Of a stretch of DNA of 12,758 bases, positions 1,858 through 11,239 are shown piece by piece. Both the position numbers and the translations under genes were made by a program. The first letter of the stretch is position 1; each line of letters opens with the position of its first letter. Source of the stretch: a virus (Duplodnaviria > Heunggongvirae > Uroviricota > Caudoviricetes). The notes below the pieces were generated by a model, which saw only the letters and a list, made by a program, of their open reading frames with translations, was not told where the DNA came from and ran no database searches. The stretch is from IMG/VR virus record IMGVR_UViG_2636415500_000004; one strand, given 5' to 3'.

Positions 1858-2165
1858 AGATATTTATGATGAGGACGCTCGTGCTTATTGGCAGGATTTT
1901 CAATCTTAAAGGAGTACTGATGCTGCAGATAAGACTCAACTTTTTCTGACAATTTTTCTGCTACTTCCAGGAAGACTTGCCGGACGCTCCTTCTGGCTGC
2001 TGCCTCATAAAACTCCAGCGCAGCTCCTTCAACACGGTCCATGGCGACATCCAGGTCAAAAATTTCACCGTCAAAGCGTTCTTTGTCCTGTAAGGCTACA
2101 GTTACCGTAACTTTATTCTCAAAATTACGGACTCCTTTCACAACCAGTTCATAGTCTTGAGTCAT
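1854..2165 (-). CDS. ydfR: Conserved prophage protein of unknown function (103 aa) between holin and endolysin
   Basis: Intact ORF with 4-nt overlap onto the endolysin start. Recalled as YdfR (DUF1327) from Qin. Confidence 0.8.
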
Positions 2166-2169
2166 TGGA

Positions 2170-2385
2170 TTACTCTCCTCTCGCAGCCTTACGCCTGTCT
2201 TCTTTAATCTTGAAATAAAGATTTGTCAGATACGTCAGCAGGCCAAAAACCAGGCTACCCAGCACACCGATTGCAGCCCACTGTGACGGAGTTACTTTAT
2301 CGAGTAACTGCAATGCCCAGAAACCAGCATTACCCGCCGATGTGCCATAGGCAACACCTGTTGTTAACTTATCCATTGATTTCAT
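2170..2385 (-). CDS. essQ: Class II holin / pinholin, S21-like (71 aa)
   Basis: Translation [28 protein letters not shown]...[10 protein letters not shown]: dual-start motif M-K-S-M, two TM segments, charged C-terminus. RBS GGTGAGG upstream. The ORF-track version (96 aa from 2460) is an over-extension. Confidence 0.9.
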
Positions 2386-2516
2386 ATCCTCACCCCGATG
2401 TACACGGATGGTGCAATATGTTTGAAAAGATCGGAGTCTACGGGGTAGTTTTGACAGCACACGTTGTTCTCAACGGCGCTAAAAAAACATACACATTAAA
2501 AATGTGGGTAATTATT

Positions 2517-2545
2517 TTGAAAGAAAGTCATATATAAAATAATAA
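2517..2545 (+). promoter_or_regulatory. Candidate sigma-70 promoter for the zinc-ribbon mini-protein
   Basis: TTGAAA (2517-2522), 17-nt spacer, TAATAA (2540-2545). AT-rich region, so chance matches are plausible. Confidence 0.3.
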
Positions 2546-2604
2546 TACGAGAAATGTTTTCATATTTAGTGTACTGTATACGGCCATTTATACAGGAAAA
2601 GCCT

Positions 2605-2775
2605 ATGTCAGAACGTAAAAACTCAAAATCACGCCGTAATTATCTCGTTAAATGTTCCTGCCCAAACTGCACCCAAGAGTCAGAACACAGTTTTTCAAGA
2701 GTACAAAAAGGTGCCCTTTTGATCTGCCCTCATTGCAACAAAGTATTCCAGACAAATCTTAAAGCTGTAGCCTGA
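2605..2775 (+). CDS. ynfU: Small zinc-ribbon protein (56 aa)
   Basis: MSERKNSKSRRNYLVKCSCPNCTQ...LICPHCNKVF: two Cys pairs (CPNC, CPHC) about 22 residues apart. Good RBS AGGAAA 7 nt upstream of ATG 2605. Length and motif fit my recollection of the Qin small protein YnfU. The longer 73-aa track ORF from 2554 lacks an RBS. Confidence 0.65.
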   Translation: MSERKNSKSRRNYLVKCSCPNCTQESEHSFSRVQKGALLICPHCNKVFQTNLKAVA

Positions 2776-2834
2776 TTGATTTTATTAGTAACAAGTATTT
2801 TTTATATTTTAATAATATATTTAAAGCAGATAAT

Positions 2835-2857
2835 AAAAAACCCGCCTGAGCGGGTTT
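2835..2857 (-). terminator. Intrinsic terminator, strong on the minus strand (likely ends the cspB transcript), weaker on plus
   Basis: AAAAAACCCGC-CTGA-GCGGGTTT; minus-strand reading gives the stem followed by UUUUUUAUU. Confidence 0.6.
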
Positions 2858-3138
2858 GAGATTGTGGTGCTTTTTGTGGGAGTCATCCACTTACGCACTT
2901 TGTTTTGCCATGCCAGCAGTTAGCTTCTGCTGTAAAACTATTCATGCAGCAAACCTGCACTTCACCACAATGGTTAGCATACTTTTCCTGATTAAGATTT
3001 TGCCAAATATGCTAGCCATTGTTTCATGTATTGGACCTCCTTACTTTTTATTAAAGAGATCCAATATTCACTACTCTGTCCGTATCTCTACTCAGGCATC
3101 AGCCTTCTTCGTTATCGTATACAGACGAGCGATGAATT

Positions 3139-3354
3139 TTAATCAGTAATGATGACATTTGCTGCTGCAGGACCTTTAGCACCACTCTCTATAGAGAAGG
3201 TAACCTTTTGACCTTCAAATAAGGTTCGATAATTATCATTCTGAATCGCAGAAAAATGCACAAACACATCTTTACTACCATCAACAGGAGAAATAAAGCC
3301 GAAACCTTTATCAGCGTTAAACCATTTTACTAAACCAGTCATTTTATTTGACAT
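3139..3354 (-). CDS. cspB: Cold-shock protein, CspA family (71 aa)
   Basis: [38 protein letters not shown]... with cold-shock domain motifs. Long upstream leader. Divergent from cspF. Confidence 0.93.
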
Positions 3355-3560
3355 TCTACATTCCTTAACTTGAGCCTTTCGGCATAAATGGTTTGCATAA
3401 CAGAAACGACTTCGTACTTAATTGGAGAGACTCAAAGAAGGAATAAGTGAATAACACCTGAAATGAGAACTGCTTTAGTAAACTACTTCGTATATCGTCT
3501 GTTCTTCAAACCGACGCAATCATTAACGCATAGTTGAACATATGAAGCAATGTTTATTTT
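3355..3560 (-). promoter_or_regulatory. cspB promoter and long 5' leader (about 160 nt)
   Basis: Minus strand has GCGTTAATG (candidate -10 at 3522-3527) followed by GGTTTGAAGAACAGACG, resembling the cspA cold-box region GGTTTGACGTACAGA. Confidence 0.55.
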
Positions 3561-6450: not shown

Positions 6451-6702
6451 TTATTCTCCTGAAAAAGCAGAAAAGCCAGCTTTTATTCCGATCTCTTTCA
6501 ATGCCTGTAATGAAGTGACAAACTCACCTTCGCGCAAGATAAATCCGTCCGTGACCCGAGCATCCACAAAATTAATTAACGCAGCCCCATTCTTTCGCAA
6601 ACACATAATGCGGTAATGACTAACAAGATTTCCATTTTCAACGCACACAGCATAGAGGCCATCTTCACAAAAAATTTTACGCAGTTCTTCGATGTTCATC
6701 AT
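6451..6702 (-). CDS. rem: Prophage protein Rem (83 aa), function unknown
   Basis: MMNIEELRKIFCEDGLYAVCVENGN... with RBS GGAAGGA upstream. Position between ydfU and hokD matches Qin. Confidence 0.82.
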   Translation of the reverse strand: MMNIEELRKIFCEDGLYAVCVENGNLVSHYRIMCLRKNGAALINFVDARVTDGFILREGEFVTSLQALKEIGIKAGFSAFSGE

Positions 6703-6820
6703 CAGAATCCTTCCGGATAATTAGCTCTCCCCTTTAAGGGACCATCCCTCTTATCCCTGCGCGCTACTTAAGTATTTTTGATTCTATTCCGGCACCGTCC
6801 AGAACTTCAAACGCGTTGAA

Positions 6821-6850
6821 AATAAAAACAAAAACCCGCCGAAGCGGGTT
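6821..6850 (-). terminator. Intrinsic terminator ending the relB-relE-hokD transcript
   Basis: Minus strand AACCCGC-UUCG-GCGGGUU followed by UUUGUUUUUAUUUUC; about 70 nt downstream of the hokD stop. Confidence 0.65.
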
Positions 6851-6918
6851 AAGTGCGGGTGCGTTGAGGATGCCTGCCACATCAGAGGTGGCGAGGGATT
6901 TCTCCCCCGCCGGGTCTC

Positions 6919-7074
6919 TTACTCCTCAGGTTCGTAAGCTGTGAAGACAGCGACCTCCGTCTGGCCGGTTCGGATTCGTACCTCGCAGAGGTCTTTCCTC
7001 GTTACCAGTGCCGTCACTATGACGGTTAAACAGATGACGATCAGGGCGATTAACATCGCCTTTTGCTGCTTCAT
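6919..7074 (-). CDS. hokD: Hok-family type I toxin, small membrane peptide (51 aa)
   Basis: Hand translation of the minus strand: MKQQKAMLIALIVICLTVIVTALVTRKDLCEVRIRTGQTEVAVFTAYEPEE. RBS AGGAGAAG upstream. Not in the ORF track because it is under the size cutoff. Confidence 0.9.
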   Translation of the reverse strand: MKQQKAMLIALIVICLTVIVTALVTRKDLCEVRIRTGQTEVAVFTAYEPEE

Positions 7075-7145
7075 AGCCTGCTTCTCCTGTCAACGCAAAG
7101 CAGAAGTGTCACCTTCGGTGCGAAACAGAGATGTCATGCTTTGGT

Positions 7146-7433
7146 TCAGAGAATGCGTTTGACCGCCTCGCTATATACTTCCGAGCGTTCTCTTTTCCCA
7201 ACAGAAATCACGAAAACGACAACTTTCTCGTCTATAACCTGGTATACAAGGCGATAGCCTGAAGACCGGAGCTTAATCTTGTAACAATCAGGCATACCAC
7301 GGAGCTTGTTTGCTTCAATCCGGGGTGACTCAAGTACTTCAACCAGCTTCTTTTTCAACTGTTCACGTACCGTCGAGCCCAGCTTTCGCCATTCCTTTAG
7401 TGCCCGCTCGTCAAAATCCAGAAAATACGCCAT
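7146..7433 (-). CDS. relE: Type II toxin RelE, ribosome-dependent mRNA endonuclease (95 aa)
   Basis: MAYFLDFDERALKEWRKLGSTVREQLKKKL...; start overlaps the relB stop by 1 nt (TGATG). Confidence 0.95.
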   Translation of the reverse strand: MAYFLDFDERALKEWRKLGSTVREQLKKKLVEVLESPRIEANKLRGMPDCYKIKLRSSGYRLVYQVIDEKVVVFVISVGKRERSEVYSEAVKRIL

Positions 7434-7672
7434 CAGAGTTCATCCAGCGTCACACGTACTGGCTTAGGATTACGAAGCCGTTCTTTCACTATCTCCACAA
7501 GTTCAGCATCTTCATCACTCAGGAGTGTCTGTTTGAACGGCAAGCGTTCATTGTCAGCGATATACTCGAGCATGAGACGAAGCGCTTCAGAAGGAGTTAC
7601 ACCCATTTTTTCAAGCGCGGCGTAAGAACGCGCTTTAAGTTCATCGTCAATACGCAGGTTAATGCTACCCAT
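7433..7672 (-). CDS. relB: Type II antitoxin RelB (79 aa)
   Basis: MGSINLRIDDELKARSYAALEKMGVTPSEALRLMLEYI...; ribbon-helix-helix-type N-terminus; directly upstream of relE. Confidence 0.95.
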   Translation of the reverse strand: MGSINLRIDDELKARSYAALEKMGVTPSEALRLMLEYIADNERLPFKQTLLSDEDAELVEIVKERLRNPKPVRVTLDEL

Positions 7673-7683
7673 GTCTTACACCT

Positions 7684-7736
7684 CTTGTAATTACAAATGT
7701 CATTACAAGTATCGCACTACAACATGCTTAGGGCAA
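7684..7736 (-). promoter_or_regulatory. relBE promoter with operator palindrome (relO)
   Basis: Minus strand -35 TTGCCC (7731-7736), 17-nt spacer, -10 GATACT (7708-7713). Imperfect palindrome CTTGTAAT-TACAAATGTC-ATTACAAG (7684-7709) with repeated TTGTAAT/TACAA units covers the start site. Confidence 0.65.
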
Positions 7737-8002
7737 GTCACGAAGGAAGTCAGAAAGTAGTCGTAAGAACGGTGATCACTGTCCGCTTTGTGCCAGGAGC
7801 AGCCATTGCTAAGTCCATCCTGTATTGTGCAGGTCAGCTCGTTTTTAAAGAGTCCGGCCATCATCTTACTGGTACAGACACCATATACTTTGTGACGGTC
7901 AGGCTACATATGCACAACTCAACTTATTCATCTATTTTTTGCTTTAGCATGTCAGTGTTGCTTTCTCGTCGGCGGGTGAGCGGTGACCTGACCTGTCGAT
8001 AA
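7697..8002 (+). CDS. ydfV: Questionable ORF (101 aa) divergent from relB, overlapping the relB operator
   Basis: Position and length match the K-12 annotation ydfV as I recall it, but I see no convincing RBS, the start lies inside relO, and the composition is atypical. Listed for completeness. Confidence 0.3.
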   Translation: MSLQVSHYNMLRASHEGSQKVVVRTVITVRFVPGAAIAKSILYCAGQLVFKESGHHLTGTDTIYFVTVRLHMHNSTYSSIFCFSMSVLLSRRRVSGDLTCR

Positions 8003-8154
8003 AGGAACGTAACACGTTTTATGCAACACCCGCATGCGGCAGAAAATTATTGCCGAACGTTTACCCCTGTCAACAAGCTTTACTTTCTGAGGCGCGCCAG
8101 CCCGCGAGGAAAACAATCTGAACATCAAACAATTAATGACACAAGAAATACGAT

Positions 8155-8181
8155 TAAAGATTTTTTTGTGCATGCCGATAG
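8155..8181 (+). promoter_or_regulatory. Sigma-28 (FliA) type promoter upstream of flxA
   Basis: TAAAGATT-N11-GCCGATAG against consensus TAAAGTTT-N11-GCCGATAA; 23 nt upstream of the flxA ATG. Confidence 0.7.
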
Positions 8182-8204
8182 TGCTTTTTTAAAAGGAGAA
8201 ATCT

Positions 8205-8537
8205 ATGTCTGTCACAATTCAGGGAAATACCTCAACCGTTATTTCAAACAACTCCGCCCCGGAAGGAACATCAGAAATAGCCAAAATCACAAGACAAATT
8301 CAGGTGCTGACTGAAAAGCTTGGGAAAATCTCATCGGAAGAGGGGATGACGACACAGCAGAAAAAAGAAATGGCTGCATTGGTACAGAAGCAAATTGAAA
8401 GCCTCTGGGCTCAACTGGAGCAGTTGTTAAGGCAGCAGGCAGAGAAAAAGAATGAAGACGCGACAGTTCAGCCTGATAAAAAAGAAGAGAAAAAAGACGA
8501 TACAAATACCGCTGGCACCATTGATATTTACGTCTAA
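8205..8537 (+). CDS. flxA: FlxA, FliA-regulated protein of unknown function (110 aa)
   Basis: MSVTIQGNTSTVISNNSAPEGTSEIAKITRQIQVLTEKL...; RBS AAGGAG 6 nt upstream; coiled-coil-like Gln/Lys/Glu-rich sequence. Confidence 0.9.
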   Translation: MSVTIQGNTSTVISNNSAPEGTSEIAKITRQIQVLTEKLGKISSEEGMTTQQKKEMAALVQKQIESLWAQLEQLLRQQAEKKNEDATVQPDKKEEKKDDTNTAGTIDIYV

Positions 8538-8551
8538 GTGACAGCCGTATT

Positions 8552-8576
8552 GTGGCCCTCATCGGGCCACTTTTCG
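8552..8576 (+). terminator. Intrinsic terminator after flxA
   Basis: GTGGCCC-TCATC-GGGCCAC followed by TTTTCGCC. Confidence 0.6.
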
Positions 8577-8921
8577 CCATCAGCCTTTTCTTTAAAGACA
8601 TATTATCTTTGTATCATTTCTGATAGTTAACATTACAAGATATAAGTAATGGACGCACTCCCAATTAGTCTATTTAAATCGCCACGAGTTTAACTGACAA
8701 CCCATGATCAATTATGAATTGCAACTATTTCTGTAGTCACTTTTGTGGGGACAGTCCACAAAACTGCCAACTTCCGCTTCTTGCTCTTAGCGGACATTAG
8801 CATAGGCTATTTACCATAACGCCTCATTACGCGCACCGCCCAGACTGACTCAGCGCGTTTCTGGCATATCCCCGGTAAAACAAGTAACAAACCACCCGAA
8901 AATGAACACCAGAAACGCGAC

Positions 8922-9149
8922 TTAAGAATCTACCCTATGAATGGATATGCACTCAACCGAATCGATCTTGGTTTCAATCTTTTTTATCGGGATCAGGCTT
9001 CTTTTTAGGTAACTTCGGGGGCTTAACTTGCTGATGACTTTGCGTTCGGCGCGTAAGCCAGGGATGGTCAGCTTTAGGTTTAACATAGTATTTTGAGCGT
9101 AAATCAATACGGGCATTATCCACTCGTTCATGGACACTCTTTTCATCAT
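8922..9149 (-). CDS. Hypothetical protein (75 aa), last gene of the dicC-ydfX string
   Basis: ORF overlaps the ydfX stop by 4 nt, suggesting co-translation. By synteny this is where K-12 annotates ydfW/intK (integrase remnant), but I cannot recognise integrase motifs in the translation. Confidence 0.45.
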   Translation of the reverse strand: MMKRVSMNEWIMPVLIYAQNTMLNLKLTIPGLRAERKVISKLSPRSYLKRSLIPIKKIETKIDSVECISIHRVDS

Positions 9150-9436
9150 CCAGTGGTAGCCTCCATAATTGCAGGCACTAGCGCCGTGAACTTTTCACGC
9201 TTATCCCTGGTGTCGATAGCCTTCCAGCGTTCAAATATCTTCACTCGATTAACGCCAAGCGCTCGCTGATCAATCGCGCCACCTTCATATGTGACACGCT
9301 GAACATCGATGTTCGGGCGCTCTTTCAAAGCCCAGAATGCTTCAGTGATTAATATCGTCGCCTGCTCCTGTGTCATTCCTGGTCGACATATCCAGGCATC
9401 CAGAGCCTCACGAGCCTGTTCAGGAGTGATTTTCAT
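9146..9436 (-). CDS. ydfX: Prophage protein YdfX (96 aa), function unknown
   Basis: MKITPEQAREALDAWICRPGMTQEQATILI...; start overlaps the dicC 3' end by 17 nt. Confidence 0.78.
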   Translation of the reverse strand: MKITPEQAREALDAWICRPGMTQEQATILITEAFWALKERPNIDVQRVTYEGGAIDQRALGVNRVKIFERWKAIDTRDKREKFTALVPAIMEATTG

Positions 9437-11181: not shown

Positions 11182-11239
11182 TTTCTGGTGACGTTTGGCG
11201 GTATCAGTTTTACTCCGTGACTGCTCTGCCGCCCTTTTT
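11182..11239 (+). ncRNA. dicF: DicF small regulatory RNA (Hfq-dependent; represses ftsZ and other targets)
   Basis: Sequence UUUCUGGUGACGUUUGGCGGUAUCAGUUUUACUCCGUGACUGCUCUGCCGCCCUUUUU matches DicF as I recall it. Ends in its own terminator hairpin (GGCGG...CCGCC + U5). Lies inside the dicB operon between ydfC and dicB. Confidence 0.85.

Follow-up and report, generated by a model that had tools for sequence, protein, structure and literature searches.

Gene content of the locus

The window analysed in this study is a stretch of 12,758 nucleotides (nt) from a virus of the Caudoviricetes (IMG/VR record IMGVR_UViG_2636415500_000004), and it represents the Qin prophage of Escherichia coli K-12. 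A 1101-nt query over the locus of interest is 100% identical to MG1655 and to many other strains, and the MG1655 annotation gives the locus as relB/relE/hokD, bounded by ydfV and rem. Here a type II toxin-antitoxin (TA) pair, relBE, stands directly before hokD (relF), which is a hok gene without a hok/sok system. Very probably this arrangement arose when a transposon bearing relBE split a hokD locus, a deletion in the K-12 lineage followed, and hokD came to be expressed by read-through from relBE.

All three genes are encoded on the minus strand. According to the open reading frame (ORF) list and Pfam, relB (7433-7672) encodes a 79-aa type II antitoxin and autorepressor (RelB, E=1e-32), relE (7146-7433) a 95-aa ribosome-dependent mRNA interferase (ParE_toxin, the ParE/RelE fold, E=2e-13) and hokD (6919-7074) a 51-aa Hok/Gef membrane toxin (HOK_GEF, E=1e-23). 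The ATG of relE overlaps the TGA of relB by 1 nt (shared base 7433), and a spacer of 71 nt (7145-7075) separates relE from hokD. A RelB-family antitoxin gene placed first, followed by an overlapping gene for a toxin of the RelE/ParE superfamily, is what characterizes a RelBE type II system. An earlier note on this DNA, made from its letters alone, had described the three co-directional genes with one shared nt and a 71-nt gap, a strong terminator behind hokD and a relO operator over the promoter start, and all of these features were borne out.

The relO palindrome at 7684-7709 (CTTGTAATGACA TT TGTAATTACAAG) has two 12-nt arms (7684-7695 and 7698-7709) that are 92% complementary and 2 nt apart; binding of RelB and RelE at relO has been reported by others. 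It lies directly downstream of the -10 hexamer and spans the expected transcription start. The promoter hexamers (7708-7736, minus strand), as read from the sequence, are a -35 TTGCCC at 7736-7731 and a -10 GATACT at 7713-7708 with a 17-nt spacer between them. They make 8 of 12 possible matches, which is under the threshold of the promoter scan, and their position agrees with that of the published PrelBEF (PMC3598666). At the distal end, the intrinsic terminator of the hok locus (6817-6850, minus strand), a stem at 6850-6833 followed by a T run, ends the relBEF transcript; its sequence is identical in two of the three aligned intact relatives and near-identical in the third. Neither a terminator nor a promoter-like site was found in the relE-hokD interval, and both strands in and near this spacer are free of sigma-70-like sites. 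The TTGACC (7159-7164) and TATACT (7174-7179) pair that had been pointed out on the plus strand is present as claimed; its 9-nt spacer is far too short, and it is oriented into relE, away from the hokD leader.

hokD lacks the accessories of hok/sok loci

With hok/sok of R1 and the chromosomal loci, K-12 hokD shares a Hok/Gef ORF with its Shine-Dalgarno sequence, a 3' untranslated region (UTR) bearing the fold-back inhibition (fbi) element, and a terminator. Unlike hok/sok of plasmid R1, it is transcribed from the promoter of a type II TA system and its leader elements are gone, namely the hok promoter, tac, ucb, the mok start, the Sok target and the sok gene. In a complete hok mRNA, tac and ucb near the 5' end are the pairing partners of fbi and dcb near the 3' end. 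The fbi element (CCTCAACGCACCC; 6857-6869, minus strand) is kept and, together with the terminator, matches intact hok loci in the alignment, but its 5' partner tac is absent from the entire window. No sok-family RNA was found in the window at the Rfam gathering score, and none at E<=10 over 6700-7800. The would-be mok frame upstream of hokD is shut by an in-frame TGA (7090-7092, minus strand, read 7092-7090), with no start codon between this TGA and the hokD ATG. The earlier note had failed to find either mok or sok and had suggested aligning the locus with canonical hok loci; both absences were confirmed, and the alignment indicates that the accessories are deleted, homology stopping at 7088.

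The absence of sok is meaningful because close relatives with an identical HokD give strong matches. By megablast, the hokD region was found in about 4,700 of 5,426 complete E. coli genomes and is joined to relBE in only 1,162 of them; the remaining genomes match hokD solely from window position 7088 downstream, 14 nt before the ATG. Three relBE-free loci were inspected (O55:H7 CB9615, an ST131 strain and ECCHD184). All of them encode the identical HokD, and immediately before the gene Rfam sok (RF01794) reaches 104-117 bits; across all intact loci used as positive controls, plasmid ones included, the range is 84-117 bits. An in-frame upstream ATG occurs in CB9615 and ECCHD184 only. In ECCHD184 it lies 57 nt upstream and opens a 70-codon in-frame mok, a sigma-70-like promoter stands at the predicted hok mRNA start, and in the minimum-free-energy fold of the mRNA tac at nt 1-12 (GGGUGCUUGAGG) is paired with fbi in the 3' UTR (CCUCAACGCACCC), which is the classic hok fold-back.

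It is scarcely credible that the locus is a conventional hok/sok system lying beside relBE whose sok and mok are degenerate or divergent and were overlooked. A 55-codon ORF initiated by TTG (6926-7093) does overlap hokD in another frame, but the TTG at 7093 falls within the transposon repeat described below, the ORF has no Pfam match and no promoter-like site was seen on either strand. Moreover, sok is absent at a cut-off as permissive as E<=10 where intact relatives are clearly positive, and upstream of 7088 there is only the transposon end and relE.

Active lambdoid phages have an identical Hok protein under the annotation MokW or HokD; the Hok of MokW-HokD in lambdoid phages such as mEp460, and probably that of hokW-sokW in the Stx2 prophage Sp5, is identical or nearly so. 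The hokW-sokW locus of Sp5 is a working type I system (PMC8621323). K-12 hokD resembles these intact prophage loci in standing just upstream of DUF968/ydfU and Q-type antiterminator genes; they represent the uninterrupted form, whereas the K-12 copy appears severed from its leader by a transposon, with the leader deleted.

Sub-threshold Rfam matches over 6700-7800 (isrK at 25 bits, and rsmX) are weak and terminator-driven, and none of them is sok. The hokD 3' UTR (6829-6910, minus strand) resembles isrK, an Hfq-binding RNA of Salmonella prophages, with those 25 bits against a gathering score of 50, a match probably driven by the terminator together with two hairpins. The 58 nt that follow relE bear an apparent likeness to the R1 leader, but the idea that they are a vestigial hok leader was unsupported, the stretch being a transposon repeat. 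A literature search for the names 'sokD' and 'mokD' found nothing bacterial.

A transposon end in front of hokD

The last 26 nt before the Shine-Dalgarno region of hokD (7088-7113, minus strand; GGTGACACTTCTGCTTTGCGTTGACA) correspond to the right terminal inverted repeat (IRR) of an IS1202-family transposon, and the TGA that closes the mok frame lies inside it. The adjoining GGAGAAGCAGGCTAT (7073-7087, minus strand) is the right copy of a 15-bp target duplication and holds the GGAG of the hokD Shine-Dalgarno sequence and the AT of the start codon. The IRR matches the left terminal inverted repeat (IRL) of the plasmid element, TGTTAACACCAAGCTGTAATGTCCCC, at 19 of 26 positions, with TGT...ACA ends.

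Complete elements were found on plasmids. Comparison of an IncHI2 plasmid with uninterrupted sok-hok (L008; Rfam sok 84 bits) and an IncHI2 plasmid with relBE-hok (L010) revealed a 6,093-bp insert in the Shine-Dalgarno-ATG region of the latter, flanked by a 15/16-bp duplication (AGGAGAAGAAGGCCAT). The insert ends in the IRL sequence given above and, on the other strand, in TGTCAACGCAAAGCAGAAGTGTCACC, which together form the imperfect inverted repeats; its left end encodes a transposase of 446 aa (ISNCY model NF033594, E=1e-138) and relBE lies at its right end. In a Klebsiella michiganensis plasmid this element is inserted in a different hok allele, and the 15-bp duplication is a different one as well, GGAGAAGAAGCCATG. 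Across the relatives the transposases have 430-446 aa (NF033594, 1e-138), and K-12 retains only a 45-aa C-terminal remnant.

The NCBI annotation of the E. coli element names an ISNCY or an IS1202-like ISEsa1-family transposase. Members of the IS1202 family have a transposase of about 440-460 aa, imperfect repeats of 24-26 bp with TGT ends and subgroups with long duplications (15-17 bp or more), and some are 'transporter' insertion sequences (IS) with cargo genes (PMC10132070; bioRxiv 2022.12.17.520857). With its transposase of about 446 aa, 26-bp imperfect repeats with TGT...ACA ends, 15-bp duplication and cargo genes, the relBE element fits this family (ISEsa1-like) as far as its sequence can tell. 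Unlike other members, it has a type II TA pair among its cargo, placed at its very right end after an internal repeat-like sequence.

The plasmid elements carry a cytochrome b gene and a cation-diffusion-facilitator gene where the E. coli version has flxA. In both plasmids with a transposon-split hok (L010 and L033) the orphaned sok/hok leader has a second IS within it or next to it. The leader of L010 contains ISKpn8 (27102-28543), which has a 4-bp duplication; L033 has an IS110-family element (2065-3069) about 170 nt upstream of the split, and no sok-family match is left there.

The complete element in E. coli and the K-12 deletion

The insertion model was tested with a synthetic query in which the hokD leader ending in GGAGAAGCAGGCTAT was joined to the IRL (TGTTAACACC). 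This predicted left junction had matches in 691 E. coli genomes that covered at least 80% of the query, with 96-99% identity among the matches listed. In the Qin-like prophage of strain 14EC047 the order is dicC, ydaT and O and so on, the hokD leader, the element itself (IRL-tnp-ydfW-flxA-ydfV-relB-relE-IRR), and then hokD, rem, ydfU and ydfT. The element measures 3,272 bp and has exact GGAGAAGCAGGCTAT repeats on both flanks. The hokD leader to its left is 98.4% identical to the intact leader. The leader at L034 was confirmed by blastn.

Apart from one 7.25-kb deletion, the K-12 and 14EC047 loci are 98.6-99.3% identical. The sequence lost comprises phage O, the hokD leader including sok and mok, the IRL and the bulk of the transposase gene, and the deletion joins a ydaT-like gene (the ydfX pseudogene) to the C-terminus of the transposase at 9158-9159. 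The junction ydfX/ydfW (9157-9159) shows the microhomology GGAG(G/C)CTAT and is present in 359 E. coli genomes. Next to it lies the transposase remnant (9025-9159, minus strand), identified by tblastn as residues 386-430 (45 residues, 91% identity). The ydfW ORF (8974-9159, minus strand) consists mostly of this remnant, and ydfX (9158-9436, minus strand) is what remains of the N-terminal part of a YdaT-family gene. Of the element, K-12 has only the right-hand 2.07 kb left, and its single remaining duplication copy is the right one.

Between the transposase gene and relBE lies the cargo region of the E. coli element (7796-8778), with flxA (8205-8537, plus strand) and most of the ydfV ORF (7697-8002, plus strand). 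A search for an empty site with the K-12 left flank found none, the flxA-ydfV flank occurring only together with relBE (1212 genomes). It never occurs without relBE because flxA and ydfV lie inside the transposon, and flxA in E. coli is probably transposon cargo and not a Qin phage gene. The ydfV ORF begins within the relO palindrome, runs antisense across the relBE promoter and passes the boundary at about 7795 into the cargo; it therefore covers two unrelated segments that meet at that boundary, and its status as a real gene is doubtful.

According to Pedersen and Gerdes (1999), as cited in later papers, the hok loci of K-12 owe their inactivation to point mutation, genetic rearrangement or insertion elements (PMC7232551; PMC5630033), and a 2019 review attributes the shortening of an ancestral 70-codon hokD ORF to 51 codons to the integration of a plasmid-derived relBE (PMC6379469). 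As judged from the comparisons above, the 'genetic rearrangement' at hokD took place in two steps: a transposon split the locus by inserting into it, and the K-12 lineage then underwent a deletion. An IS1202-family (ISEsa1-like) transposon with a terminator-less relBE in its final 708 bp would have entered a prophage hok/sok locus at precisely the point where the mok/sok leader meets the hok start. The hok ORF would have kept its Shine-Dalgarno sequence and ATG because the insertion duplicated the 15 bp of GGAGAAGCAGGCTAT, and the K-12 lineage would later have lost the 7.25 kb holding the orphaned leader, the IRL and most of the transposase gene.

The relBE cassette

Within the element, relBE occupies a discrete cassette of 708 bp (5'-TGGCAC...GTTGACA-3', window 7795-7088), which forms the last part of the transposon. 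Its left boundary (7771-7795, minus strand; TGGCACAAAGCGGACAGTGATCACC) is inverted-repeat-like and matches the right repeat in 17 of 20 columns. The left edge is the same in at least six different left contexts. More than 1,300 plasmids from Klebsiella, Enterobacter, Salmonella, Citrobacter and E. coli carry the relBE segment, in nearly every case with at least 95% identity, and the plasmid cassettes mostly precede a Hok gene too, but one of other alleles. Between loci the cassette is 99.2-100% identical, whereas the adjoining hok regions are merely 50-84% identical; the two parts have thus not diverged side by side, and their pairing is recent.

This contrast bears on the alternative that hok alleles recombined or underwent gene conversion, or that ordinary lambdoid mosaicism, rather than transposition, produced the relBE-hokD junction. 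K-12 does lack the left duplication and the IRL, the Shine-Dalgarno-ATG region is conserved between some hok alleles, and one plasmid junction (GGAG|ATG in L007) does not fit a simple 15-bp duplication. Against this, a complete element with exact 15-bp repeats exists in the hokD allele of E. coli and differs from K-12 by one deletion, two more hok alleles have allele-specific duplications, and the cassette is nearly invariant beside such divergent neighbours. Such an origin is very improbable, and transposition followed by deletion is preferred.

The misfitting junction (3209-3225 of L007, Klebsiella pneumoniae plasmid CP067828.1) reads TTGACAGGAG|ATGAAACT, has no Shine-Dalgarno-ATG spacing and lacks 9 nt compared with intact relatives. 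From its sequence it is a deletion or an illegitimate junction and no simple 15-bp duplication.

As for the cassette being an independent mini-element, it has repeat-like ends and at least six left contexts, and no duplication was found in any context inspected. The 9 nt outside its left end (7796-7804, minus strand, and L005, L006, L016 and L020) are alike in five otherwise unrelated contexts (GTCCGCTCC, GTCCGCTTC, GTCCACTTC, GGCTGCTCC and GTCTGCTCA). Together with AGCGGAC within the cassette they can form a 7-bp hairpin, and these contexts show no target duplication. A 13-nt inverted repeat, partly made up of target sequence, straddles both cassette ends.

The 23-nt right-end sequence also terminates an IS of about 1.5 kb that encodes a transposase in a metagenome-assembled genome (L025), and it recurs in two others. 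The match is exact in all three (L022, L023 and L025), which are metagenome-assembled Pseudomonadales, Anaerolineales and Azotimanducaceae from distant phyla; the IS of L025 has a homologous transposase and a subterminal repeat of the right-end motif.

Apparent preference for hok start regions

The right-end scan, limited to one genome per species, gave 22 loci. Among the enterobacterial loci, six different hok alleles have the repeat in sense orientation at their start region, between 3 and 13 nt ahead of the ATG. In one inverted case (L020) it stands at a hok leader, at the very same 15 nt, with Rfam sok (94.7 bits) touching the repeat, and at a separate hok-adjacent locus (L021) the hok gene is cut short by an IS. 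Altogether, at least seven classes of junction place the right end against a hok start region. The repeat stands next to non-hok sequence in three or four enterobacterial cases, at least two of which adjoin another IS. All three insertions with proven duplications (the hokD allele in 14EC047 and the two plasmid alleles) have duplications that start at the GGAG of the Shine-Dalgarno sequence.

Published surveys report no target preference for the long-duplication IS1202 groups (PMC10132070), and the clustering of relBE element insertions at hok start regions sets it apart from these groups. We lean, by a modest degree, towards the view that the element selectively inserts at the Shine-Dalgarno/start region of hok genes in prophages and plasmids, severing Hok from Sok and mok, and that K-12 relBEF is a decayed example. 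No description of such hok targeting was found in the searchable literature, two key subscription papers excepted, and the apparent preference looks new. The transposon origin, the exact K-12 deletion and the recurrent hits on hok starts may likewise be new.

Transcription and expression of hokD

The relBEF operon has been known since 1985-86 and is among the oldest TA operons described. The locus studied here is this very operon of the K-12 Qin prophage (100% nucleotide identity), so that the relB-relE-hokD arrangement is already known, and a transposon origin adds to its description without introducing a difference. The earlier note had called the arrangement unusual, a description to be corrected in view of its long record and of the fact that the transposon footprint occurs at several plasmid and prophage hok genes and not in K-12 only. 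The other part of that proposal, in which hokD is purely a distal cistron of the relBE operon, is supported by the lack of a mok, sok or promoter of its own and by the published single transcript. A single full-length relBEF mRNA is seen on northern blots with probes for each of the three genes, relF being co-transcribed with relBE, and the relF part is the most abundant fragment after toxin-induced cleavage (PMC3598666). Others have also shown this 3' part with hokD to be the most stable. Summaries based on RegulonDB also give relE and hokD as co-transcribed with a 71-nt spacer (PMC5120126). TadA edits hokD mRNA (PMC5630033), which must therefore be made; A-to-I editing by TadA, changing Tyr to Cys, has been reported in hokC, hokD and hokE (PMC5630033). 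The Tyr47 codon of hokD stands in a TACG motif at 6933-6936 (minus strand), the reported TadA site (PMC5630033).

Co-transcription of a downstream neighbour by a terminator-less cassette is also seen with mazEF-mazG and similar type II pairs (PMC5120126). Unlike in mazEF-mazG, the neighbour of relBE is a toxin gene of another TA type, and the adjacency appears to have been made by targeted transposition. Most simply, the co-transcription is a by-product of the landing site of the transposon and not a purpose-built hybrid. From one promoter repressed by RelB/RelE, a single transcript, as shown by others, passes through relE and the transposon end into hokD and stops at the hok terminator. hokD has no antitoxin of its own, and we infer that its output therefore follows derepression of relBE. 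Translation from the retained Shine-Dalgarno sequence is probably inefficient, which may be why the arrangement is tolerated.

That hokD is instead served by its own promoter, within relE or through the outward TTGACA at the end of the transposon repeat, independently of relO, is improbable. IS ends often create hybrid promoters, and the IRR does end in a perfect -35 hexamer (7093-7088). However, no -10 hexamer stands 16-18 nt downstream, the sole TATGAA is 12 nt away and a start from it would fall at or after the hokD ATG, and the scan of the spacer gave no promoter-like site. A constitutive transcript hybridizing to relE and relF does persist in a PrelBEF deletion strain, which the authors blame on a promoter made by the deletion, whereas in that strain toxin or starvation no longer induced relBEF mRNA, nor did its 3' part with relF accumulate (PMC3598666).

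This residual transcript weighs against read-through from relBE as the source of hokD mRNA, and some further points count against the reconstruction as a whole. K-12 itself has no left duplication, IRL or transposase gene, so that its history is drawn from relatives whose flanks are 99.3% identical. Translation of HokD from the native operon has not been reported in the accessible literature. Minimum-free-energy folds of the K-12 RNA are not robust, the pairings of the Shine-Dalgarno sequence and of fbi differing between full-length RNA and fragment, and the folds were used only qualitatively for Shine-Dalgarno accessibility, as they depend on the fragment chosen.

In the fold of the fragment from the relE stop to the terminator, UGCGUUGA of the IRR (7097-7090) pairs with UCAACGCA of fbi (6867-6860) beside the Shine-Dalgarno sequence. 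UGCGUUGA is the outer end of the transposon repeat, and its 8 nt are perfectly complementary to fbi, for which the estimated chance in a 58-nt spacer is about 0.005. On this modelling, the pairing could be a substitute fold-back or a coincidence.

The three-gene arrangement might also be adaptive, with Hok placed under RelB/RelE control as a second, membrane-acting toxin and kept by selection, which we regard as rather unlikely. The duplication preserved the hok ORF and Shine-Dalgarno sequence in three independent insertions, the sense orientation prevails (six hok alleles against one inverted), relF is the most abundant fragment of the cleaved mRNA (PMC3598666) and overexpressed HokD is toxic (bioRxiv 2025.08.07.668861). 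Retention of the ORF is, however, an automatic consequence of the duplication, and the inverted insertion of L020 exists. Some linked hok genes seem damaged, with the stop lost in L027, truncation in L021 and the Shine-Dalgarno spacing missing in L007, and a native hokD phenotype has not been reported in the accessible literature. A by-product of transposition remains the preferred reading.

Significance and other features of the window

hokD was already known as an orphan hok gene, so that the finding of the earlier note is textbook-level as stated, and the practical consequences of its origin are modest. The 'chromosomal' relBE of K-12, which differs by no more than 1% from its counterparts on IncHI2 and IncF resistance plasmids (99-100% identity), would be a mobile cassette of recent arrival, and the widely used relBE deletions and 'delta-10 TA' strains would alter a transposon remnant and the expression of hokD with it. 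Similarly, ydfW, ydfV and probably flxA would be transposon remnants or cargo and not genes of the Qin phage. If the preference for hok is true, it would be the first known target for the long-duplication IS1202 group, and the transposon would neutralize a resident addiction module while bringing its own. Selective targeting would also mean that one addiction module displaces the control of another, with Hok placed behind a type II promoter each time.

Elsewhere in the window, Rfam recognized cspA-type thermoregulator leaders at cspI and cspB (228-613 and 3123-3515, both on the minus strand) and the DicF small RNA (11183-11234, plus strand), all of which are expected in the Qin prophage.

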